From: Thermoproteota archaeon
GTDB lineage: Archaea; Thermoproteota; Thermoprotei_A; EX4484-217-1
Length of the DNA stretch: 64,000 nt
Reading direction: 5' to 3'
Assembly (NCBI GenBank): GCA_029258915.1
Contig: JAPDJU010000006.1
Location: forward strand, 101,183 to 165,182
Shown: piece by piece, positions 31,164 through 45,622 of the stretch
Layout: every line of letters begins with the position of its first letter
Position numbering within the stretch: position 1 is the stretch's first letter
The notes under the pieces: generated by a model
Database searches by the model: none
Told to the model about the DNA's origin: nothing
The model's input: the letters and a program-made list of their open reading frames with translations, nothing else
Program-made: the position numbers and the translations under genes

Positions 31164-33239
31164 TTATCTAAAGCCAAGTACTGAGCCTATACTTATAATG
31201 CTTAGCGATACGATGTATGCCAATAAAACCTCGTAGATTAAAGCTAAGATTGCATACTTTAACCCTAACTCGTTTCTTACCATAGCGAGAGTTGCAATAC
31301 ATGGTACGTAGATTAAGACAAAAGCCATATAAGCATAAGCAGTTAATGGTGTAAACACATGTCTTTCAGCTATAACATCCACTATCTTTTCCTCCCCTAC
31401 ACCATACAGTATAGCCATTGAGCTAACTACGATCTCTTTAGCTACAAAGCCGAAAAATAATGCTACTGCCGCTCTCCAATCCCATCCCATTAACGAGAAT
31501 ACAGTTGAAGCTAACAATTGACCCAAAATGCCGGCCCAGCTTTCTCTAAGAAGCTGAGGGTCTTCAAGAGCTTCTGGTCCAAGGTATCCTTCCGGACCCG
31601 TTACCGATAACAGCCACACTATTACTGTGCCAAGAAATATTACCGTACCTGCTTTGAATAAGAACCTCTTAGTTCTCTCCCAAGTCTTTATAGCCACGTT
31701 GTCGAAACGGGGCATCATGTATGGCGGTAACTCCATAATGAAGCCGCTGCTAGCACCTTTAAAAAGCGTTTTTCTAAGCAATAAACCTACGATTAACGCT
31801 AAAATTATACCTAAAACATACAGGCTAAGTACAGCAAAGCCTGCCGAGGCTCCTAGAACAGCACCGCCAATTACCAAGTATACTGGTAAACGAGCATTAC
31901 ATGAAGCTAGAGGTGCTATTAGTGCCGTTGTTTTTCTCTCATTTTCATCCTCAATAGCTCTAGCAGCCATTACACCTGGAACGTTACATCCAAAACCTAT
32001 AATCAATGGTATTACAGCCTTCCCAGGTAAGTTGAACTTATGAAATACTTTATCTACCAGGAAAGCTACCCTTGCCATGTATCCTACATCCTCTAGTATA
32101 GCGAAACCTAGGAAGAAGAATGCGATAATAGGTAGAAATATAAGTACCGCACCTACACCGGCAATAACCCCATCAGCTAAGAATGAGGTAAGCCAGTCAG
32201 GTAGGCCATGAATGCCCAAGACTATATCATGTAAATAGCTGTTAATAGCCACATCTACTAGGTCTGCAAGAGGCACTGACACTTCAAATGCAAACCTAAA
32301 GAGCAGATATATTGCTGAGAGAGCAAGAGGTATTCCAACAATCTTATGCGTTAGAACACTATCTAGAAGATCTGTCATAGATACTCTTGGTACAGCTACT
32401 CTTTCCACAACAGCCTTAACAATTTCTAGAACCCTTTCATACTTTTGCTTAACAATATAAGATTCAGGGTCACCTATCTTTTTCCCAAGTATTTCTCTAA
32501 GTTGATTAGCTTTGTCTATTATTTCTTTACCTGCAGGTAGCTTTGAAACCTTACCTACAATATCACTATCTCCTTCTAAGAGTTTTAATGCAATCCACCT
32601 AGCAGGATATTTTTCTGCAAGTTCTGGAGCTAAATCCTTAATTACTTCCTCAATTTTAGATATTGCTTCCTCAACTATTCTACCATAATCTACAATACGT
32701 GCTTGCACCTTCTTTTCATGAATAGCCTTCACAATAGTCTCCTTTAGCTTGCCGATACCACGACCTGTAGTGGCTACGGTTGGTACGACAGGTACGCCTA
32801 TGAGAAATTCTAGTTTTTTATAGTCTATTTTGTAACCTTCCTTCTCAGCTAAATCAACCATATTAAGATCTATAACTACATTAGCACCGAGCTCTAACAG
32901 CGATAAGGCAAGGTAGAGGCTTCTTTCAAGATTTATTGCGCTAACTATACATACTACTACGTCAGGTTTTTCTTCGACAATAAAGTTCCTTGCAATAAGC
33001 TCGTCAACACTATAAGCTGTGAGACTATATATTCCTGGTAAATCCACTACCTCAATTTCTGCTCCATTCACCCTTAATGTACCAACTTTTTTCTCAACAG
33101 TTACGCCAGGCCAGTTTCCTACCCAAGCTCTACCCCCGGTTAACCTATTAAATATAAGCGACTTACCTACATTAGGTATACCTGCCAATGCTATCTTAAC
33201 ACGTCTACTTTCACGAGCCAAGAGACTATACCTCCTCAA
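31164..33239 (-). CDS. feoB: Ferrous iron transporter FeoB
   Basis: N-terminal G-domain (GIPNVGKS, DLPG) followed by a large polytopic membrane domain. Confidence 0.9.
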   Translation of the reverse strand: MRRYSLLARESRRVKIALAGIPNVGKSLIFNRLTGGRAWVGNWPGVTVEKKVGTLRVNGAEIEVVDLPGIYSLTAYSVDELIARNFIVEEKPDVVVCIVSAINLERSLYLALSLLELGANVVIDLNMVDLAEKEGYKIDYKKLEFLIGVPVVPTVATTGRGIGKLKETIVKAIHEKKVQARIVDYGRIVEEAISKIEEVIKDLAPELAEKYPARWIALKLLEGDSDIVGKVSKLPAGKEIIDKANQLREILGKKIGDPESYIVKQKYERVLEIVKAVVERVAVPRVSMTDLLDSVLTHKIVGIPLALSAIYLLFRFAFEVSVPLADLVDVAINSYLHDIVLGIHGLPDWLTSFLADGVIAGVGAVLIFLPIIAFFFLGFAILEDVGYMARVAFLVDKVFHKFNLPGKAVIPLIIGFGCNVPGVMAARAIEDENERKTTALIAPLASCNARLPVYLVIGGAVLGASAGFAVLSLYVLGIILALIVGLLLRKTLFKGASSGFIMELPPYMMPRFDNVAIKTWERTKRFLFKAGTVIFLGTVIVWLLSVTGPEGYLGPEALEDPQLLRESWAGILGQLLASTVFSLMGWDWRAAVALFFGFVAKEIVVSSMAILYGVGEEKIVDVIAERHVFTPLTAYAYMAFVLIYVPCIATLAMVRNELGLKYAILALIYEVLLAYIVSLSIISIGSVLGFR

Positions 33240-33507
33240 CCATAATTTTCATCGCGACGCCAAACCCTAAAAGAAGTCTCCCCCCAGTAGCAATAGGGCG
33301 GTAAGGGGGAAAGTTCCTTTTAGAAACGTATGGTGAATCATTAACGATTTCAATAATTACAGGTCCAGGACCTTGAGTTTTTATAACCCGAACCATTTTG
33401 CCTTCTATTATACCCAGCTCATGCAACCTCCTATGTAATCCCTTACCAGCCCTAATTGCAACAATTCGGACTAACTTACCTTCTTGAGCATAAGCTAAAG
33501 GCATCAT
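33226..33507 (-). CDS. feoA: FeoA-domain protein
   Basis: SH3-like FeoA pattern (LVRIVAI...RLHELGIIEG...); overlaps the feoB start. Confidence 0.65.
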   Translation of the reverse strand: MMPLAYAQEGKLVRIVAIRAGKGLHRRLHELGIIEGKMVRVIKTQGPGPVIIEIVNDSPYVSKRNFPPYRPIATGGRLLLGFGVAMKIMVEEV

Positions 33508-33737
33508 CCTTTAACCTCCTCTAAAATTATTTTTTCTGCTTCCGCCTTCCTAATGCTGATAGGGTTTCCCTTAGCTACGATCTCGATAGGGTCTCCTAAA
33601 GGAGCTTTACGAACTACCTTAATTTCTAAACCCGGTAATAGTCCTAAGTCAAGTATCCTTCTCTTAACCAAGCCTGCTCCTTCAACCCTAACTACTCTAT
33701 AGATTCTACCTACTTTTGCCATTGAAAGCCTAATCAT
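33504..33737 (-). CDS. feoA: FeoA-domain protein (second copy)
   Basis: VGRIYRVVRVEG...RRILDLGLLPG matches the FeoA domain. Confidence 0.7.
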   Translation of the reverse strand: MIRLSMAKVGRIYRVVRVEGAGLVKRRILDLGLLPGLEIKVVRKAPLGDPIEIVAKGNPISIRKAEAEKIILEEVKG

Positions 33738-35598: not shown

Positions 35599-37092
35599 GT
35601 GTTTTCTTTGAAGCACAGTGTTAAGATGCTGGTCTCTACATTGGGCCCATTAATATTCCTTATATTAGCTCTATTACCTCCCATCCCAGGAATGTATGAA
35701 GCATCTCTTTCCGTAAATGCTCACCCTAAAGCTGCACAAATTACCTTAGGCTTACTTTTCTGGGTTGTTGAATGGTGGGTTTTAGAAACAGTTCCGCTAG
35801 GTTTAACAGGCTTACTGCCTGCACTTATACTTCCCATGTTAGGTATTTTAAGCTGGAAGGAGGCCTTACCTACGTATTTAAGCCCTATAATATGGATTTT
35901 TATGGGAGCCTTCGCTTTAGCAAACGCTTTTAGAGCTTCCGGGTTAGATAAGAGGGTTGTTGCTTTTCTCTCAAACCTTTATAAAGGTAAGAGTTTTGCT
36001 TTATCAGTGCTTGCTACCATTTGTTTACCAACATTTTTCTTAAGCATGATAGGTTCAATAACAGGCGCTGCTAGCATAATGCTTCCCATAACCTTAGCTT
36101 ATCTTTCAGCAGTTAAGGGTAAAAGCAAAGAAGTCAACGAGATGACATTGCTTCTTATGGCTAATGCTGCAACAGCTGGTGCACTACTTTTCCTAATAAG
36201 CACACCTCCAAACCTTATAGGTAAAGCTGTTGTTGAACAGTTTACAGAATATACAGTAAGCTTCTTTGACTGGTTTACTTTCGGAACACCGCAAGCAATA
36301 TTTGGCTTAATTACATCATGGGCTATAATAATTTTCCTGTACCGTAAATTTCTAACCGCAATAGAAGCCCCTAAAAGCTATGCCGTAAGTAAGCCTATGG
36401 ACTTCGCCGAGAAAGCAGTTTTTATAGTGTTTTCGTTAGCCATTATTCTTTGGACTACTCCAGGCTTCCTTTCCATCGCAGCATCAATAATAAAGTCTCC
36501 TTTCTTAGTAAACCTAGCCTCAACAATGAAGAAGTATGTTCCAGAATATGCTCCAGCAATCTTAGTGCTAATACTGTTACCTTTAATTAAACATGAAGGT
36601 AAACGTGTGCTTCCTTTCGATGAAATGCTTAGAAAGATAAATTGGAATACGATATTTCTCTTCGGAGGAGGACTACTTTTAGGTAAAGGGATTTTAGCTA
36701 GTGGCTTAGCAGCATGGATAGCTTCAATAGTTGAGAAACAGGCTGGTGCAGAAGCATCTGCATGGCTTTTAACAGCAATTACAGCTACTTTAGCTTTCGG
36801 ACTTACACAGGTAGCCTCAAACACCGCAACAGCAAACATATTTTGCCCAATAGCTGCAACTATAGCTTTAGGTGCGAATATAAACCCAGCGATATCAGTA
36901 TTAATAACAGCAATGGCATGTTCAATAGCATGTACGCTACCAGCATCAACACCTCCAATGGCTATAGTTTATTCAACAAAAGCAATTAGAGTTAAAAGCA
37001 TGCTAAAAGTAGGCGTTATTGCAGGAAGTATAAGGCTTATATTTCTTCTTCTAACAGGGCCCCAGCTAATACACATTATATTCTACAGATAA
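35599..37092 (+). CDS. Anion permease (DASS / ArsB-NhaD superfamily)
   Basis: 497-aa polytopic membrane protein with internally repeated hydrophobic halves. Confidence 0.55.
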   Translation: MFSLKHSVKMLVSTLGPLIFLILALLPPIPGMYEASLSVNAHPKAAQITLGLLFWVVEWWVLETVPLGLTGLLPALILPMLGILSWKEALPTYLSPIIWIFMGAFALANAFRASGLDKRVVAFLSNLYKGKSFALSVLATICLPTFFLSMIGSITGAASIMLPITLAYLSAVKGKSKEVNEMTLLLMANAATAGALLFLISTPPNLIGKAVVEQFTEYTVSFFDWFTFGTPQAIFGLITSWAIIIFLYRKFLTAIEAPKSYAVSKPMDFAEKAVFIVFSLAIILWTTPGFLSIAASIIKSPFLVNLASTMKKYVPEYAPAILVLILLPLIKHEGKRVLPFDEMLRKINWNTIFLFGGGLLLGKGILASGLAAWIASIVEKQAGAEASAWLLTAITATLAFGLTQVASNTATANIFCPIAATIALGANINPAISVLITAMACSIACTLPASTPPMAIVYSTKAIRVKSMLKVGVIAGSIRLIFLLLTGPQLIHIIFYR

Positions 37093-37143
37093 TTCAGAGA
37101 TCCTTATAAATCAGAAACCATCTTTAATATTGCAGATAAGTAA

Positions 37144-37968
37144 TTAGTCTTGAAACTCTATTTTAATTTCACAATATGGATCTCCTTTTGCTACACACGA
37201 AGTTTCTTTTGCTTTAACTTTTCTCCCAGTAAATGCCTCTACTAAGCCAGCAATTATTCCTCGCAGTATATGGCCTGTTGGCCCCATTATCTCATATTTT
37301 CTAGCTAACTCACATTCCCAATAGTTAAATAGCCTAATCTTTATGAGATCTTTTCTTAGTAAGTGTCGGTAAGAGTAATAAGTTATTTTACCTTTACATA
37401 TACCTCTGGCAAAGCAACATATTAGAAAGGCCTTTAAGGCTTCTTCTAGGTCTTTTATCCCCAAGGTTTTTAGGTCTTGAGCATATAAACGACCTAAGCT
37501 AAGTCCGTGATGATACAGCGATGCCGCTGCTAATCTTCCAAATTTCTTTTTAAATAGAACAGCTAATAATTTCATGTCATCTTCTGTTAAAAGTAGCAGT
37601 CTTCTTCCAAAATCATCTATTATAGGAAAATGATGAAGATCAGCAAGAATTTGAGGCAACTGAGGATAATCTATTCTAACATCTATAACACTTTCAATTT
37701 TTATAATCTCTCTTTTAACCACATTCGGGTCAATACTAAGACCAGTAAAGTCGCATACAAAGAAGCCACCTTCAACATTCCCTACCCTAGCTCTCGTACT
37801 GAAGACTATGGCACAGATGTTTACCCTGTATTTTTCAAAAGTTTTAGCTATAGCAGACAATGTCCCAGGTTTATTGACGGCTTTTATGTAAAAGCCAATA
37901 AGTCTCCTGTCCTTAGTAAATATTAAGTTACTTAAACGTGCTCCCTCATATTCTTCAGCAGATTCCAT
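37144..37968 (-). CDS. ACT-domain plus V4R-domain protein (putative small-molecule sensor)
   Basis: N-terminal ACT-like IGFYIKAVNKPGTLSAI and C-terminal V4R Cys motif ETSCVAKGDPYCE; paralog of 42635-43441. Confidence 0.6.
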   Translation of the reverse strand: MESAEEYEGARLSNLIFTKDRRLIGFYIKAVNKPGTLSAIAKTFEKYRVNICAIVFSTRARVGNVEGGFFVCDFTGLSIDPNVVKREIIKIESVIDVRIDYPQLPQILADLHHFPIIDDFGRRLLLLTEDDMKLLAVLFKKKFGRLAAASLYHHGLSLGRLYAQDLKTLGIKDLEEALKAFLICCFARGICKGKITYYSYRHLLRKDLIKIRLFNYWECELARKYEIMGPTGHILRGIIAGLVEAFTGRKVKAKETSCVAKGDPYCEIKIEFQD

Positions 37969-38229
37969 TTTTAATAACCCCTATTCACTACGTCAATCTA
38001 GTTTTTCCCTATTATAAAAACTAATTCTAACAGAATGGTATCTAAACATTTATTCTTTGAAACAGAAAAGACCTCTCATAGGAAACCCATGTTTTCTTTT
38101 TTAAGTTTTAGCATTAATTACATAAAATACGTTTAGACAGACTTGCCGTTAAAGTGAAAATGACGGAATCAAGCTAATTAGTGGGATAATTTAAAGATAA
38201 GATAGAGTAGGTTAGGTGAAAGATTAACC

Positions 38230-38805
38230 ATGTATATTTATAGTGACTACCATGACGAATTTTTCACGTTTGAAGGTTACGCTAGAGATGTAGTAGGCGA
38301 TCCCATACTTCTCAGAAAAGTTGTAGAAAAATATATGCCTGTAGAGAAACTTGTAGACATACATGTTGGTGTTGAAATAGAAATAGAGGGTGTATATGCT
38401 GTTGAAATATGGGTTGTTCTCTCAGATGGCATAACAAGCCTAGTTCTTGCGGATTCACCCATACCTTTAACTCCTAAACAATGGCAAATAATAATAAACA
38501 AAGTAGATGAACAGTATAGAAGAGTCCGTGGATTATTAATAGAGCCTAAACCTAATGTCTCGTTTAAAGATCTTATGGAGGATCTAGAAAACTATATTAG
38601 CACTTTAGGTTTAAAACTTAAATTCCTAGCTAAAATGTCTAAAGCATTTTTAAGCAGGTCATTAAATCTTATAGGGTTAAGACCGTGGAACATAGTTTTA
38701 GCGCTGAGTAGAGACCATATTGTAGAAACGTATCTCATACCTAGAAAATTTCTTAAAGACGTTGAGAAATTGTTAAAGGATAAAGCAAAAATAACCTATG
38801 TTTAA
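38230..38805 (+). CDS. Hypothetical protein
   Basis: 191-aa ORF; no recognised motif. Confidence 0.35.
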   Translation: MYIYSDYHDEFFTFEGYARDVVGDPILLRKVVEKYMPVEKLVDIHVGVEIEIEGVYAVEIWVVLSDGITSLVLADSPIPLTPKQWQIIINKVDEQYRRVRGLLIEPKPNVSFKDLMEDLENYISTLGLKLKFLAKMSKAFLSRSLNLIGLRPWNIVLALSRDHIVETYLIPRKFLKDVEKLLKDKAKITYV

Positions 38806-38828
38806 ACACAATACATTACGTATTACCT

Positions 38829-39440
38829 ATGGGTACAGAGGCTAGATATGCTGAAATATTTGAAGCTAAAATCTCTATTACTGTAAACTTCATTATTTGG
38901 CTAATTAGGTTAATCATAGGTTTCACTATTGGGAGTATAGCTATTTTAGCTGATGCATGGCATGTAATAAGCGATGTTTTAACATCCATTGGTGTCTATG
39001 TTGCTGGAAAAATAGCTTCTAAACCTGCTGATAGAGAACATCCATATGGACATGGTAGAGTAGCAGTTTTAGCAGAACTATTCATTTCAGCAGTATTGGT
39101 GCTTGTATCCTTAGTAATAGTTTACGAAGTTTTCTATGGCATATTCATTACCGAATTTCTACATGAAATAGCGTTTTACGGCATATTCTTCGTCATAGCA
39201 ACAGCGATAGCTAAGGAACTCATGGCACGGTGGGCTGTTTCTTTAGGTAAAAAGTCAGGCTCAAATCTATGCATTGTAGATGGGTTACATCACAGACTAG
39301 ATGCTCTGATATCTTTAAGCATTTCTATAGCACTTTATATTGGAATAATATTTAACATCATGGTTCTTGATAAGTTAATAGCGTTAGCAGTAGTGGCTAT
39401 AATAGGTTTCGAAGCATTTAAAATAGCTAAAAATCAGTAG
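38829..39440 (+). CDS. Cation diffusion facilitator (CDF) transporter, transmembrane domain
   Basis: CDF signatures HVISDVLTSIGV and REHPYGHGR. Confidence 0.75.
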   Translation: MGTEARYAEIFEAKISITVNFIIWLIRLIIGFTIGSIAILADAWHVISDVLTSIGVYVAGKIASKPADREHPYGHGRVAVLAELFISAVLVLVSLVIVYEVFYGIFITEFLHEIAFYGIFFVIATAIAKELMARWAVSLGKKSGSNLCIVDGLHHRLDALISLSISIALYIGIIFNIMVLDKLIALAVVAIIGFEAFKIAKNQ

Positions 39441-39448
39441 ATACATTA

Positions 39449-39706
39449 ATGAAGAAGAGAATACCTGAAATAGAAAAACTAGTTGCTGAAGAAGCAGCTA
39501 AACACAGTAAAATACTATATATTCACGATGTAAATGCCAGGAATTTAGGAGGATACTACGTTGTTGAAACAACAGTACACTTAGCCCCATCCCTTACATT
39601 AAAGGAAGCACATAAAATAGCGCATGAATTAGAAGAAGCTGTAAGAAAAAGAAATTCAAAAATAATTAAACTAATAATCCATATAGAACCTGAAGGCGAA
39701 GACTAA
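39449..39706 (+). CDS. CDF transporter C-terminal cytoplasmic domain, encoded as a separate ORF
   Basis: YIHDVNARNLGGYYVVETTVHLAPSLTLKEAHKIAHELEEAV...HIEP matches the CDF C-terminal domain; starts 9 nt after the TMD stop. Confidence 0.65.
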   Translation: MKKRIPEIEKLVAEEAAKHSKILYIHDVNARNLGGYYVVETTVHLAPSLTLKEAHKIAHELEEAVRKRNSKIIKLIIHIEPEGED

Positions 39707-39901
39707 ATAGGGTTAATAATGTTTTAAGTAAAAATGATGACATTAGATTAAGAAGCTCAAATTCTACTTGTCTTTACAAGCTCTCTCGAGGTTAGAATAG
39801 AAATCTACTAAGTTTCTATCTTGAGTAAAACTTTCGAGATAGTAAGCTTTCAATATGAAGAGTATCAATATTGAATCTAGGCTGCTTGTTGGGTATAAGC
39901 C

Positions 39902-41344
39902 ATGCCTAAACCTGCCTTGACTCTACTATCGAAAGATGAAATAGAGGTAGTTCATGAACGCTCATTGGAAATTTTAAGTGAAATAGGTGTTAAAATAGAA
40001 GATGAAAATGTAGTAAACATGTTAAAAAGTAAGGGCTTAGATGTAGAAGGCAAAGTGGTTAAGATACCTGCATATATGGTTAAAGAGGCTTTAGCCAAAA
40101 CACCTAGAACCATAACATTATATGATAGAAACGGTAAGCCATATCATGTTTTAGGCGAAGGAAAAACACTATTTAATCCAGGCTCAGCTGCAATTAAAAT
40201 ATTAGATTATGGTTCTACAGAGCCTAGACCACCAATACTTAAAGATTTGAGAGATTTAGTAATAGTGGTTGATGCTTTAGAAAATATTAAAGCTCAAAGC
40301 ACAGCTTTAGTACCAATCGATATACCAATAGAAGTCAGCGACTTAGTTAGATTATATCCTGTATTAAAGTACTCTGAAAAACCAATAATAACGGGTGCTT
40401 TCAGTGTTGAAGGCCTACACTATATGGTTAAAGCTCTTTCAATAGTTGTAAATGACTTAGATAAAAAGCCTTTAGCAATATTTGATGTTTGTCCTTCACC
40501 ACCTTTACAGTGGAGCAAAATAGCTATAGGAAATCTTGTTGATGGGGCAAAATACCATGTACCTTTAGAGATAATACCTATGCCTCAAATAGGTGCTACG
40601 GGTCCCGTAACAATAGCTGGGTCTCTCATACAGCATAATGCCGAAATTCTTAGCGGTATAGTTATCGCTCAACTTACTTCCCCGGGAACACCAATAATCT
40701 ATGGGGGCTCACCTTCAACATTTGAAATGAGGCATGGAACATCATTGATCGCGGGCATAGAAGCACTGCTTCTGGTAACAGCATATGTAGACATGGCTAA
40801 ATACTATGGGATACCTGTTCACGGATATTTAGGGTTGAGTGATTCAAAACAAATAGACTACCAAGCAGGATTAGAAACCATGTTAGGAGCCCTAATTGCT
40901 ACGATTAAAGGTGTCGATGTTGCTTCAGGACCTGGAATGCTTGAATTTGAAAGTGTTCAAAGCTTAGAAAAATTAGTGTTAGATAATGAGATATGCGGTT
41001 TAGCATTTAGATACGCTAAGGGCTTTGAAATTTCTAAAGACACATTGGCAATAAATGTTGTAAGGAAAGTTAGACATGGAGGCCACTTTTTAGCTCAAAA
41101 ACATACCGTTAAATATCTAAGAAGAGAACTATATATGCCAAAAATACTGGATAGGGCGGGCAGAGGAACAGCAATAAAAAGTATTATTCAGAAGGCACAT
41201 GAAGAAGTAATTAGAGTTCTTAAAGAACATAAAGCACCCATACTGGATAAAGACATTGAAAAAGAGCTAGTTGAGTACATAAATTCAGTAACATTAAAAT
41301 ATGGTTGCAATTTAGACACTATAATCTCTAAATACCGCATATAG
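39902..41344 (+). CDS. MttB-superfamily methyltransferase (non-pyrrolysine trimethylamine/glycine betaine:corrinoid methyltransferase-like)
   Basis: 480-aa uninterrupted ORF whose length and composition recall MttB/MtgB TIM-barrel methyltransferases; family call is by overall resemblance and is unverified. Confidence 0.6.
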   Translation: MPKPALTLLSKDEIEVVHERSLEILSEIGVKIEDENVVNMLKSKGLDVEGKVVKIPAYMVKEALAKTPRTITLYDRNGKPYHVLGEGKTLFNPGSAAIKILDYGSTEPRPPILKDLRDLVIVVDALENIKAQSTALVPIDIPIEVSDLVRLYPVLKYSEKPIITGAFSVEGLHYMVKALSIVVNDLDKKPLAIFDVCPSPPLQWSKIAIGNLVDGAKYHVPLEIIPMPQIGATGPVTIAGSLIQHNAEILSGIVIAQLTSPGTPIIYGGSPSTFEMRHGTSLIAGIEALLLVTAYVDMAKYYGIPVHGYLGLSDSKQIDYQAGLETMLGALIATIKGVDVASGPGMLEFESVQSLEKLVLDNEICGLAFRYAKGFEISKDTLAINVVRKVRHGGHFLAQKHTVKYLRRELYMPKILDRAGRGTAIKSIIQKAHEEVIRVLKEHKAPILDKDIEKELVEYINSVTLKYGCNLDTIISKYRI

Positions 41345-41526
41345 TATCTAACATCGATAAGCAACCATGCTTTCTATTAGTGACCATTAATATTATTAGA
41401 AAATAATATCACATTACATGGGAGAAGCAGGACGGGAGTTTCTTTAAAGTAAAGTTTAAATTTAGAATGTGCGAATGTAGTGGTCAAAAACGTTTAACAT
41501 TAAACAGCGCTTAAAGGAAGATTATC

Positions 41527-42393
41527 TTGGTTCAAGAGGAAGTCTTAGGCCTTATGTATGCTGTCGGCGCACTGCTCTCATTCAGTTTTTCACCTATACT
41601 GTATAAAGTAGGGTTAAAGAATGAACTACATGTTTTAGAAGCCAATACCTTAAGAGCATGGGGTGCTTTCCTACTACTAACACCGATATATGCTCTGCAT
41701 GGTTTTACACATACTATACCGTTAGAGCTTATAGTGTTCTTAGTTATTTCAGCTATTTCAGGACCTATAGTTGGCGATACATTTTTTCTATTTTCTATCA
41801 GGAAAGTTGGTGCTTCGATAGCTACGCCTTTAGCTAATACGTACTCCTTAATTGTCGTTGTACTTTCTGTTATCTTATTTAGTGAGAAGATAACTTTGTT
41901 GAATACTTTAGGTGGGGCTCTTATATTGTCATCCATATGGCTAGTATATCTGGAGAGGAGAAGTATTAAAGGTGACGTTGTTCCAGGATTATTTGCTGGA
42001 CTCGGCGCTGCTTCCGGATATGCTTTATCAATAATTTCTATGAATGTTCTTTTAAATAGTAAAATAGATCCTGTAACTATAATTTACTTTAGAATAATAC
42101 TTGTAGGTATTTTACTTACTCTCATAGTTAGAACACTGAACTTTAGCTTTAGAACAGTAAGTAGGAGAACATTGTTAGCTCTGTCTGTTGGAGGATTTTT
42201 CGGTGTAGGTTTTGGAGTAATATTGTTGCTTACTGCAATAACGTATTTGGGCGCTGGAAAAGCATCATTAATTGCTTCAGCAGCACCCGTAATTACAAGC
42301 ACTATTGCAATGGCTTTACTTAAAGAGAAATTTAGAGCTAAAGTAATAATTGCAGCCATACTCGTTTCCATAGGGGCTATTATGCTAAAATAG
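41527..42393 (+). CDS. EamA/DMT-family transporter
   Basis: Ten-TM pattern with two internal repeats. Confidence 0.65.
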   Translation: MVQEEVLGLMYAVGALLSFSFSPILYKVGLKNELHVLEANTLRAWGAFLLLTPIYALHGFTHTIPLELIVFLVISAISGPIVGDTFFLFSIRKVGASIATPLANTYSLIVVVLSVILFSEKITLLNTLGGALILSSIWLVYLERRSIKGDVVPGLFAGLGAASGYALSIISMNVLLNSKIDPVTIIYFRIILVGILLTLIVRTLNFSFRTVSRRTLLALSVGGFFGVGFGVILLLTAITYLGAGKASLIASAAPVITSTIAMALLKEKFRAKVIIAAILVSIGAIMLK

Positions 42394-42634
42394 CCTAGCC
42401 GCATTTTGGTTTTAAAGCATATTAGAAAGAGGCTTTTATGGCACGCATACTAAGTAGTGATGGTATTCTTAAAAATAGCAAAGAAATGCATGGGTGGTTT
42501 TAGAAACTTCATTTATCTTTAATTAATTAAAAATAGAGAAATTGTGAAAAGCATTTTTTCAACAACTGATAAAATGACAATCTATATTAAGGTTAAGATA
42601 ATTATTTTCTATGAGCACTTGAGGTGTTTAGTGT

Positions 42635-43441
42635 TTGTGCGCTGCTTTAGCTCCATTACTTCTAAGTAACCTATACTTCATTCAACGCGAAAAACTTGTA
42701 GGCTTCCACATAGTTGCTGTAAACAAGCCTGGAGCTTTGGTTAAAATATCTTCTGTACTAGGTAAATACAATGTTAATATTGTAGCTATAGTTTTCTCTT
42801 CCAGAATAGAATTGGGTGAGAAAGCCTCAATATTCATAATAACTGATTTTACATACTCAGAAATGAAACCTAAGGAAATAGAGGATAAGCTTAAAGAACT
42901 CGATGTAGCTCAGCACGTTAACCTGGTTAAACCTCAATTACCTAAAATACTAGTTGATCCCCACCATTTTCCTGTAGTTGATGATTTAAATAGAAGATTT
43001 ATACTTCTTTCAGAAAGCGCTATGAAAAGCGTTGTTGTGAGATTAAGAGAAACATTCGGAACAGGTGGATTAGCTTTTCTTTACCATCAAGGGAAAATAG
43101 TGGGCACTGAACTTGCAGAAACATACAGGGAAATGGGAATATCTGATTTAAAAGATGCTATCAAAATGTTTTTACTTCATCTTCTAGCTTTGGGAAGGTA
43201 TTTGGGAGAAATCACATACTATAAAGAGGACAGAATAATTATTAGACTACATAGAAATTGGGAATGCGAAGTAGCTATGAAGCATAATGTGAAGGGACCT
43301 GCTTCATATTTTGAAAGAGGAGTAGTAGCAGGGTTCTTAGAAAAATTTACTGGGAGAAAGGTGTCTGTACATGAAATTAAATGTCTAGCGAAAGGAGATC
43401 CATATTGTGAATTCCTAGTCACCTTTCTCCCACATAGATAG
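42635..43441 (+). CDS. ACT-domain plus V4R-domain protein, paralog of 37144-37968
   Basis: VGFHIVAVNKPGAL and IKCLAKGDPYCEF mirror the paralog; TTG start. Confidence 0.6.
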   Translation: MCAALAPLLLSNLYFIQREKLVGFHIVAVNKPGALVKISSVLGKYNVNIVAIVFSSRIELGEKASIFIITDFTYSEMKPKEIEDKLKELDVAQHVNLVKPQLPKILVDPHHFPVVDDLNRRFILLSESAMKSVVVRLRETFGTGGLAFLYHQGKIVGTELAETYREMGISDLKDAIKMFLLHLLALGRYLGEITYYKEDRIIIRLHRNWECEVAMKHNVKGPASYFERGVVAGFLEKFTGRKVSVHEIKCLAKGDPYCEFLVTFLPHR

Positions 43442-43461
43442 ATTAAAAATTTCTAAACACG

Positions 43462-43992
43462 TTAGTGGCTAATAGTTTCTTCTTTCACCTTACTCCATGG
43501 ACCTTTAACACCGCTGAATATTGTAAGTAAGGTAGTGTATACTATGCCAGGCATTAGAATGAACGCTAAGTTTATGTGTTTAAGAATAATGCTTACCATT
43601 TTCGGTTCAATATACGTTAAAACTGCCATAGGAAGTACGGTAAGCGTTATTATGAATACTCCGCCTGTAAGTATTGCAGCTACCGATGCATTTAATTTAA
43701 ACCTGTTTATTATGAAACTTTCTAACGCACCAAACAACGCCCCTAAAATAAGCATTTGGAAAACATAGGCTGGTGGAGCTATCCATATTATATATGACAT
43801 TAGGTTTCCTATTTCTGTCAATGTTTTATCTATTACTTCTTGAGGAGCATTTGCAGCTGTTAACTGGTAGACTATGATCTCTCGAATCAATTCATTTAAT
43901 GTACCAGTAATAGATAAGAAAGATGCTCCTAGGACAACGCCTGTTATGGCGCCGGCAATTAATCCGTAGAAAACATATTTATTTTCAACCAT
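43462..43992 (-). CDS. Membrane protein of unknown function
   Basis: 176-aa hydrophobic ORF. Confidence 0.35.
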   Translation of the reverse strand: MVENKYVFYGLIAGAITGVVLGASFLSITGTLNELIREIIVYQLTAANAPQEVIDKTLTEIGNLMSYIIWIAPPAYVFQMLILGALFGALESFIINRFKLNASVAAILTGGVFIITLTVLPMAVLTYIEPKMVSIILKHINLAFILMPGIVYTTLLTIFSGVKGPWSKVKEETISH

Positions 43993-44064
43993 AGTTTTCT
44001 GAACACCACGTGTGAAAAATGTTAATGTATTTCTAGGATTAATATGTTTTCCTAGGTGTAGGCA

Positions 44065-44727
44065 TTGTTTTCTATATTGCTGACTATACCTATATTGCTA
44101 GCTATTTTACCTGGATTAATTGCTCTAATGCTTATAGCTAAGAAGAAGTTTAAGTTATGGTTAGATGGTTGTTTAGGTGGAGGAGGATGGTTATTAGCAT
44201 TAGTGCTAAGGTTACCTATATTACAGTTTTCAGCAAAGACATTAAACCCTACGCATTTAAGTTTACTAGCAGCCTTCATGGCCGGTATTTTTGAAGAAAC
44301 CTTTAGATACTTAGTATTAAAATATAGGCTTTTCAGCAAAGGAAGCCTATGCAAAACAGTTTTATCTGTAGGTCTAGGTTGGGGGTTAACAGAAGCATTT
44401 TTAATATACGCTTTACAAGTGCCTTTATCATACACGATAACAGGGTATGACTGGACAGTTTACCTTCCAGGCGCTTTTGAAAGGAACATTGCTATAATAC
44501 TTCATGTAGCGTTAACGTTTATTATTGCATACTCTTTAATCTCAAATATCAGATATGTCATTTTGGCAATATTCCTCCATGGTGCAGTTAATTCATTAAT
44601 TATACCTATACTCTACGTAACTAAAGACCCATGGATTATAGAGTTAATACTAGCGTTAATTACAGTACCCATAGCTACATGTATTATCATGGTGTTAAAG
44701 CCTAAAATAAGCAGCATCAAACAATAA
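44065..44727 (+). CDS. CPBP-family intramembrane metalloprotease (CAAX protease / Abi-like)
   Basis: EExxxR motif (FEETFRY) and HxxxN motif (HGAVN) within TM helices. Confidence 0.6.
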   Translation: MFSILLTIPILLAILPGLIALMLIAKKKFKLWLDGCLGGGGWLLALVLRLPILQFSAKTLNPTHLSLLAAFMAGIFEETFRYLVLKYRLFSKGSLCKTVLSVGLGWGLTEAFLIYALQVPLSYTITGYDWTVYLPGAFERNIAIILHVALTFIIAYSLISNIRYVILAIFLHGAVNSLIIPILYVTKDPWIIELILALITVPIATCIIMVLKPKISSIKQ

Positions 44728-44755: not shown

Positions 44756-45622
44756 TTAACGTAGTTTAGCGGTTCTAATGGTACTTAGCGCCATAGCTAA
44801 AAGTATAAATGCAGAGCCTGCCATTTGTTTTAAGGTGAAAACTTCGTTTAACATTAAATATGAAAGTATTGACGCAAAAACAGGTTCTAGTAAGTAAATT
44901 ATTGCTGCTTGCGTACTTGAAACATACTTTTGACCGTAAAGTTGTAGAGTATTTGTGATAATAGTACATGCTGTTGCTAAGTAGAACAGTGGAGGTAAAG
45001 CCAGCATAAATTTTTCAAATGTTGGCATAGGGAAAAACACTGCTATGGGTAAGGCACCTAACGAGGTAAATATTATTTCATAAAATACGAGCTGAACTAA
45101 ACTATATTTTTTAGTATATACTCCTACAGCAATTATTTGAAACGCCCAAAAAACTGCACCTAGAAAAACAATTAAATCACCTATTCTAAAGTATAATCCA
45201 TTTGTTGTTGAGAGAAGATAAACTCCTATAATAGATAGAAAAACCGCTAATGTTAGTTTTACAGTAAATTTCTCTCTTCCCAAAATAACTTCGAAAACAT
45301 ATACAAGAACAACGCTAAGCCCTGTTATAAAAGCAGCATTAGAAGCTGTAGTATATTCTATACCTAATCCTTGAAGCTCAATGCCGCCGAAAAAAAGCAT
45401 TCCAAGAATAAAACCGGGTTTAATTGCTTCCCTAAGATTAACTCTTAAAAGTTTAAAATAAGCCATTAGTATGAGGAAAAGCGAGGCAATAGCAAACCTT
45501 AGTAAAACATAGTAGCTAAAGCCGATATTCGAAACTATAATTTTTATAAAAGGAAAAGTTGTACCCCAGAGGAAAGTAAGCATGAACAAAGCTGCATAGC
45601 CGACAATGCTAAGTTGCTTCAT
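44756..45622 (-). CDS. EamA/DMT-family transporter
   Basis: 288-aa polytopic membrane ORF with the duplicated EamA pattern. Confidence 0.65.
   Translation of the reverse strand: MKQLSIVGYAALFMLTFLWGTTFPFIKIIVSNIGFSYYVLLRFAIASLFLILMAYFKLLRVNLREAIKPGFILGMLFFGGIELQGLGIEYTTASNAAFITGLSVVLVYVFEVILGREKFTVKLTLAVFLSIIGVYLLSTTNGLYFRIGDLIVFLGAVFWAFQIIAVGVYTKKYSLVQLVFYEIIFTSLGALPIAVFFPMPTFEKFMLALPPLFYLATACTIITNTLQLYGQKYVSSTQAAIIYLLEPVFASILSYLMLNEVFTLKQMAGSAFILLAMALSTIRTAKLR

Follow-up and report, generated by a model that had tools for sequence, protein, structure and literature searches.

Two ACT–V4R paralogs flanking a transporter and methyltransferase gene block in a Thermoproteota archaeon, and the uncharacterised family to which they belong

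Two paralogous genes, each encoding a protein with an ACT and a V4R domain, stand in opposite orientation on either side of a gene block in a 64,000-nucleotide stretch of DNA from a Thermoproteota archaeon (GenBank assembly GCA_029258915.1, contig JAPDJU010000006.1, positions 101,183 to 165,182 of the forward strand; this whole stretch is called the window hereafter). The question raised by this locus is whether the two proteins could be sensors controlling the genes between them, whether the arrangement records an inverted duplication, or whether the order of the genes has little meaning. We refer to the paralogs as A (37144-37968) and B (42635-43441), and to the loci and proteins of relatives as L0xx and P00xx. 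Both paralogs are transcribed outwards, away from the enclosed segment of 4666 bp, all genes of which are on the + strand. A is divergent from the hypothetical gene hyp191, and B lies on the same strand as the EamA gene, downstream of it after a 241-bp gap (Table 1). On the evidence given below, A and B are probably two old duplicates from a family of stand-alone sensors, found here in an incidental arrangement.

The first-pass annotation of this region described two paralogous, oppositely oriented ACT–V4R genes enclosing a hypothetical gene, a split CDF transporter gene, an MttB-like methyltransferase gene and an EamA gene, and this description was borne out. The open reading frame (ORF) coordinates of the two paralogs were exact, the same enclosed genes were found by Pfam and ORF analysis, and BLASTP aligned A and B with 44% identity and 61% positives over 261 amino acids (E 1e-79), which is far beyond chance. 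The V4R domain scored above the Pfam gathering score of 31 in both proteins (47.7 bits in A and 55.1 bits in B). The ACT domain scored 28.3 in B, against a gathering score of 27, and 19.6 in A, which is below that score; in this part of the sequence, too, A aligns with B over the full length. In an AlphaFold model of B, built from a 20-sequence alignment (pLDDT 86.6, pTM 0.80), residues 13-98 are predicted to form βαββαβ, the ACT fold, and residues 105-264 a V4R/Bet3 α/β fold. When the C-terminal domain was compared with the PDB by Foldseek, the sensor domains of MopR, PoxR and DmpR ranked first (E 5e-9 to 1e-7), and the next matches were Bet3/TRAPPC3, YslB and MJ1460. No solved PDB chain spanning both the ACT and the V4R domain was found.

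ACT and V4R were the only domain matches in A and B. Searches of Pfam and NCBIfam found no helix-turn-helix (HTH), winged HTH or ribbon-helix-helix domain for either protein and the model contained no such fold; nothing resembling a catalytic domain was found in Pfam, NCBIfam or the model. As there is no DNA-binding or enzymatic output domain, A and B would most likely be sensors acting by protein contact. We propose that they are stand-alone ligand-binding proteins, consisting of an ACT domain and a complete V4R sensor module, and that they are most likely dimeric small-molecule sensors, whose ligand could sit in the V4R cavity, at the interface of the ACT domains, or in both places. Alternatively, redox sensing via a zinc/thiol site, similar to that of MsvR, is possible. 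The signal would then be passed on through binding of another protein.

Residue conservation, computed over 151 full-length family members and given in B numbering, points to the same module. The near-invariant positions were E210, C211, E247, C250, C258, R121, D71 and the two Gly-x3-Gly pairs G153/G157 and G229/G233 (conserved in 97-100% of the members), and all of them are retained in A and B, the equivalents of the family invariants in A including E218, C219, E255, C258, C266, G155/G159 and G237/G241. The family profile matched MopR in the PDB (6.5e-8) over profile positions 101-267, and because the match covers this range, the whole XylR_N+V4R sensor module is present in the family, as judged from the alignment. 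The E-x2-C-x7-C motif of the family aligned with E178/C181/C189 of MopR, its zinc-ligand residues, numbered here by counting in the alignment. By analogy, the Cys/Glu/Cys/Cys site of the family is a putative zinc site, corresponding to the zinc-binding site of PoxR, DmpR and MopR, with the difference that the first cysteine ligand is C211 of a WECE motif here and C155, at a different position, in MopR. In the same profile-MopR alignment, His106 and Trp134 of MopR, the phenol-anchoring residues, both pair with Leu in the family consensus; therefore, the ligand of the family need not be a phenol. Two Gly-x3-Gly pairs, on helices α2 and α5, are the signature of V4R/Bet3 proteins (Podar et al., PMC2253512), and zinc sites with varying ligand positions have been described in Asgard TRAPPC3 and in PoxR (PMC10933270).

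The closest known systems differ from A and B in what surrounds the V4R domain. The V4R module of A and B shares its fold with the effector-binding domain of the σ54 activators XylR, DmpR, PoxR and MopR. However, A and B have neither the AAA+ σ54-interaction domain nor the C-terminal HTH of these activators and carry an N-terminal ACT domain instead, and the activators are proteobacterial whereas the ACT–V4R family is archaeal. The best NCBIfam match of the V4R half of B was the MsvR model (E 3.7e-13), which was matched at profile positions 130-236 (V4R) only; since A and B lack the HTH half, the scores of 49.7 and 26.8 fell far short of the cutoff of 220. Like the ACT–V4R family, MsvR is archaeal and has a V4R domain with C-x7-C cysteines. 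Three cysteines of the MsvR V4R domain are conserved, including the C-x7-C pair, and in MaMsvR C206, C232 and C240, of which the last two are spaced by x7, mediate redox-dependent DNA binding (PMC3729527). Where MsvR has an N-terminal HTH DNA-binding domain, A and B have ACT, and their hosts are not methanogens. The Msr methyltransferase regulators of Methanosarcina may also contain V4R domains, but a full-text search gave no confirmation of this and our reading makes no use of it.

Compared with the V4R proteins MJ1460, the Ignicoccus V4R expansion, COG1719 and the eukaryotic and Asgard Bet3/TRAPPC3, A and B add the N-terminal ACT domain, and ACT–V4R proteins have a conserved linker (P113, R121) that is extra to the stand-alone V4R proteins. 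No membrane or vesicle role is known for ACT–V4R proteins. They also differ from the ACT regulatory subunits and domains (IlvN/IlvH of AHAS, and the ACT domains of PGDH and RelA) in having a single ACT copy, fused to V4R, and in having no conserved neighbouring catalytic subunit beside their genes.

A profile search covering 1.84 billion representatives, with clusters at 50% identity, recovered 294 clusters with E<=1e-30, a number that rose to 1065 with E<=1e-10; nearly all members are 250-285 amino acids long, and the match runs over their full length. ACT–V4R relatives are encoded by 189 stretches of species-representative genomes, and the best 80 of these, on which our locus comparisons are based, come from Bathyarchaeia, Desulfurococcales, Thermoproteales and Thermofilaceae metagenome-assembled genomes (MAGs) as well as from Methanomethylicia, Brockarchaeota, Culexmicrobium, Nezhaarchaeota and Hecatellales. 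Several paralogs are present per genome, often at 2-4 loci per assembly among those listed. The species-representative collection held no orthologue of B above 49% identity and none of A above 44%, and a full-text literature search found no paper describing an ACT–V4R fusion. The ACT–V4R family is large, widespread in Thermoproteota and uncharacterised, and it is built from known domains.

The first-pass annotation had also suggested that A and B may be ligand-binding sensors controlling the enclosed genes. The architecture agrees with the first half of this proposal; the second half found no support in the neighbourhoods of other family members. When the window proteins were compared with the 80 loci (±10 kb) by tblastn, MttB was near an ACT–V4R gene in 1/80 loci, CDF in 0/80 and a homologue of the enclosed EamA in 1/80, and hyp191 was absent from all of these 80 other loci. 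Among all ORFs within ±5 kb, the commonest neighbour family was found in just 11/80 loci, and no Pfam family exceeded 3 of the 131 non-redundant immediate neighbours; a conserved partner gene for the family was dismissed on these counts. The orientation of neighbours around the family genes was random. The reverse comparison gave the same picture, as neither ACT–V4R nor CDF nor EamA genes adjoin the closest MttB orthologues from outside the clade of the window (73% and 59% identity). Of the ACT–V4R relatives beyond this clade, the nearest, P0003 (59% identity to B), P0004 (49%) and P0010 (45%), are single-copy and lie in unrelated contexts. A search for shared promoter motifs before the enclosed genes was equally negative: in 36900-44200, no motif or repeat family common to the intergenic regions was found.

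The only residual synteny was the divergent hyp176/YhfC pair next to B, which was found by tblastn 2-3 kb downstream of ACT–V4R genes in L003, L004 and L011 (Desulfurococcales MAGs); no other neighbours of B recur near ACT–V4R genes in other Desulfurococcales MAGs. Essentially, then, outside one genus-level clade the relatives are distant paralogs at unlinked loci, with no conserved association with these transporters. The arrangement would therefore be a lineage-specific gene order within the genus-level clade of the window and not a conserved unit of sensor and target. As a separate observation, FeoB or FeoA was found within 10 kb of an ACT–V4R gene in 3/80 loci (L006, L045 and L038) and also in the window (31164-33737), and in L006:7989-9959 FeoB is immediately upstream of the ACT–V4R gene. 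The cases are too few to speak of enrichment, and they may serve as a lead on metal sensing.

Within the clade, the layout is retained to different extents. In L087, L088 and L089, in which A is 88% identical, A stays beside hyp191 and the symporter gene, and L087, the only one of these three contigs that reaches B, retains the whole layout. L086 retains the side of B, its contig beginning inside MttB. L081 and L082, in which B is 85% identical, have the order symporter–hyp191–CDF–MttB–EamA–B–hyp176–YhfC without gene A. At the position of A, between the symporter gene and hyp191, these two have a gap of 315 bp with three collinear remnants of A (~250 bp in total extent; L081:5278-5531 and L082:2675-2928), which match A at 76% over 95 nt (E 1e-14), 70% over 103 nt (E 1e-8) and 74% over 47 nt (E 3e-4). 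The collinear remnants indicate that A was present in the common ancestor and was deleted in that lineage. Read from these remnants, the state of A in the sister species is one of in-situ gene decay, with A as the dispensable copy. In the same two loci, the gene upstream for a B12-binding radical SAM protein is also fragmented (gene calls of 112 and 71 amino acids).

The enclosed genes that remain in L081 and L082 are under purifying selection, with ratios of non-synonymous to synonymous substitution rates (dN/dS) of 0.09-0.19, and so are both paralogs, with 0.11 for A (against the L087 orthologue) and 0.13-0.25 for B. When L087 is compared with the window, most of 32-47.8 kb is 98-100% identical in nucleotide sequence, but identity drops to 80-91% over 36300-38700, centred on A and its upstream region, where A has a dS of 0.58 compared with 0.02-0.3 for neighbouring genes. 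Relaxed selection on A, which its 88% identity to the L087 orthologue could suggest, was dismissed because of the dN/dS of 0.11; a high dS together with this low ratio points to an island of divergence or recombination at A and not to decay. The region 36300-38700 has the look of a recombination mosaic. In the B orthologue of L087 (L087:4530-5334) there is a 1-nt insertion in an A5 run, equivalent to 43341-43345 of the window, and the resulting frameshift would remove the last 30 residues including E247, C250 and C258. This may be a real pseudogenisation or a homopolymer assembly error.

The alternative suggestion in the first-pass annotation, that the arrangement records an inverted duplication, was followed by dating the pair. 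At the DNA level, only two coding stretches of A and B could be aligned, with 69-74% identity, and dS between their orthologues was saturated (1.6-1.9), which makes the duplication old and not recent. The only long inverted repeat in 36900-44200 (95 nt, 75%) lies inside the conserved 3' coding ends of A and B, the repeat search and Pfam analysis of the ORFs found no flanking repeats or transposase domain at the locus, and composition is flat across the region. An old duplication is thus plausible, a recent inverted one is not. On these comparisons, the pair is anciently diverged and is neither a recent inverted duplication nor a mobile element.

In a neighbour-joining tree of 106 family members, A grouped with P0019 (100% support) and the B clade had 98% support, and both fell within a subfamily with L009, L001, P0005 and P0011-14 (84-98% support). 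A and B were nearest neighbours in this tree, the bootstrap value of the sister node being 32%. The distance from B to L009 (0.84) was smaller than that from B to A (0.99), and the branch of A was 1.5-2.6 times that of B against 8/10 outgroups. A could be an accelerated local duplicate of B or a somewhat older paralog that was lost elsewhere, and we favour the first because no A-type orthologue was found outside the clade.

Adjacent ACT–V4R gene pairs were found in 6/80 loci, 36-1056 bp apart, while most members of the family are solitary (the coordinates of the pairs are in Table 1). The members of the L003, L004 and L011 pairs, the only ones compared, are distant paralogs with ~27% identity. 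As head-to-head pairs with the same hyp176/YhfC genes downstream, they are relevant to the possibility that the locus was shaped by a structural event, through which the copies either arose in place by inverted duplication or, having been a head-to-head pair, were split by insertion of the 4.7-kb block. Placing A and B as nearest neighbours in one subfamily with 98% support would also fit such an event. However, both A and B match the (+) member of the L003, L004 and L011 pairs better than the (−) member (96 against 60 bits for A and 161 against 90 for B). Because both are nearer to the (+) member, these pairs are not orthologous to A and B, and descent of A and B from a split pair of this type was dismissed. 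The edges of the block show no repeats, transposase or composition shift, the sister node is poorly supported, and with P0003 and P0004 in unrelated contexts no ancestral state can be reconstructed. We therefore consider a structural event of this kind unlikely.

Another possibility, to which we give somewhat less weight still and regard as quite unlikely for this locus, is that A and B together make up a heterodimeric sensor, comparable to the Bet3-family paralogs in TRAPP, and are linked for co-expression. The adjacent pairs do hint at a paired function in some lineages, and the three compared pairs consist of distant paralogs; in a rough estimate for random placement (~8 paralogs in a ~1.8 Mb genome), ~1 pair would be expected. 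Furthermore, V4R/Bet3 and ACT domains dimerise in solved structures (PMC2253512, PMC10933270). However, A and B lie on opposite strands with 4.7 kb between them and so are not co-transcribed, B is still under purifying selection in L081 and L082 where A is lost, the B orthologue of L087 would lose its zinc-site residues through the 1-nt insertion (if this is not an assembly error), and solitary genes are the rule in the family.

The least credible of the readings is that one or both of A and B co-regulate the enclosed genes in response to a ligand (A might act on hyp191–CDF and B on MttB/EamA, via a DNA-binding partner or directly on the transporters): the divergence of A from hyp191–CDF, the position of B after EamA on the same strand, the gene order retained in L087-L089 and, for the side of B, in L081, L082 and L086, the use of V4R as the sensing module of the known regulators MsvR (PMC3729527) and PoxR/DmpR/MopR and the transporter-rich region would favour it, but it is improbable given that both proteins lack a DNA-binding domain, no motif is common to the intergenic regions, MttB, CDF and EamA are not associated with the family in the 80 loci or around the MttB orthologues, and L081 and L082 have lost A while their enclosed genes are intact and under purifying selection, with CDF even unsplit.

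Several points weigh against our preferred reading of A and B as an old pair in an incidental arrangement. The layout with two paralogs is conserved in at least one further sampled lineage, L087, and the side of A also in L088 and L089, and a regulator divergent from an operon, as A is from hyp191–CDF, is a classical arrangement. B could compensate for the loss of A in L081, so a redundant regulatory role is conceivable. The signalling mechanism is inferred from fold homology. With 32% support for the sister node the duplication cannot be placed firmly, and A could go back to an older paralog that other lineages have lost. The preferred reading and its alternatives are not all mutually exclusive.

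The enclosed genes have features of their own. The CDF gene is split by a 1-nt deletion in the A-run 39429-39433, which is A5 here and A6 in L081; the orthologue in L081 and L082 is a single intact ORF of 302 amino acids, while the split is also present in L087. As both halves have a dN/dS of 0.13-0.19 (0.13-0.17 for the ZT_dimer ORF), the split transporter may have remained functional, either in the form of two polypeptides or by slippage. The MttB-like gene contains no in-frame amber codon, scores 378.6 with TIGR02369, below the cutoff of 525, and has no corrinoid-protein gene among its adjacent genes, whereas its orthologue with 73% identity (L093:5599-7692) is directly preceded by a B12-binding_2/B12-binding corrinoid protein gene. 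hyp191 had no match in Pfam or NCBIfam and is conserved in L081, L082 and L087-L089.

Upstream of B, there is an AT-rich TATA-like box, TATATTAAGG (~42583-42592), and GAGGTG is located 8 nt ahead of the TTG start. Because of these two elements, B probably has its own transcription unit, with a predicted promoter. An Rfam scan of the whole window gave zero matches, and a scan for σ70 promoters and terminators was not above shuffled expectation, such models not applying to archaea. The surrounding region, 27285-49186, is unusually transporter-rich, with a chromate transporter, FeoAB, a DASS symporter, CDF, two EamA paralogs (41527-42393 and 44756-45622) and an SSS symporter, and it also carries two genes for radical SAM proteins, of which one has a B12-binding domain.

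Table 1. Positions of A, B, the genes between and beside them, and adjacent ACT–V4R gene pairs at other loci
Feature	Position	Strand	Remarks
ACT–V4R paralog A	37144-37968	−	ORF of 274 aa
A–hyp191 divergent intergenic region	37969-38229		within the most diverged stretch between strains; 80-90% identical to L087
hyp191	38230-38805	+	first gene of the enclosed + strand block
CDF metal-efflux transporter, transmembrane part	38829-39440	+	Pfam Cation_efflux 1.8e-29
CDF cytoplasmic dimerisation domain, own ORF	39449-39706	+	Pfam ZT_dimer 8.1e-15
MttB-superfamily methyltransferase	39902-41344	+	Pfam MTTB 3.8e-86
EamA-family transporter	41527-42393	+	Pfam EamA 1.8e-33
Intergenic region 5' of B	42394-42634		TATA-like box and GAGGTG read from sequence
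ACT–V4R paralog B	42635-43441	+	ORF of 268 aa, TTG start
ACT domain of B	42671-42928	+	~aa 13-98
V4R domain of B	42947-43426	+	~aa 105-264
Predicted Zn/redox-site codons of B	43265-43267; 43373-43375; 43382-43384; 43406-43408		C211; E247; C250; C258
hyp176 and YhfC-like intramembrane protease	43462-44727	− (hyp176); + (YhfC-like)	hyp176 a membrane protein; Pfam YhfC 2.6e-11
Divergent ACT–V4R pairs	L003:8076-10308; L004:8530-10762; L011:9018-10687		100-630 bp apart, Desulfurococcales MAGs
Tandem ACT–V4R pair	L045:9968-11598
Convergent ACT–V4R pairs	L070:9971-11919; L072:703-3278

For the family as a whole, we tentatively suggest, as a possibility to which we attach limited confidence, that ACT–V4R proteins represent a hitherto unrecognised type of sensor, widespread in Thermoproteota, that has no output domain and two pockets, with one site in the ACT domain and a V4R cavity with its zinc/thiol site. 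Such sensors could form homodimers or heterodimers of paralogs and dock on partners of several kinds, for instance transporters, enzymes or transcription factors. A and B could then be a young, partly redundant and diverging pair, and dimers of this sort would account for the recurrent adjacent pairs of distant paralogs.

The gene arrangement that drew attention to this locus matters little, being an ordinary, lineage-specific order of two old paralogs. What it leads to is a well-populated domain combination, ACT with V4R, with at least 294 clusters at 50% identity, of which the Thermoproteota carry several paralogs per genome. The family is related to the redox-sensing V4R domain of MsvR and is, in archaea and as a stand-alone protein, the counterpart of the phenol-sensor module of bacteria, and its ligands and partners would inform signal transduction in those archaea in which classical two-component systems are few.

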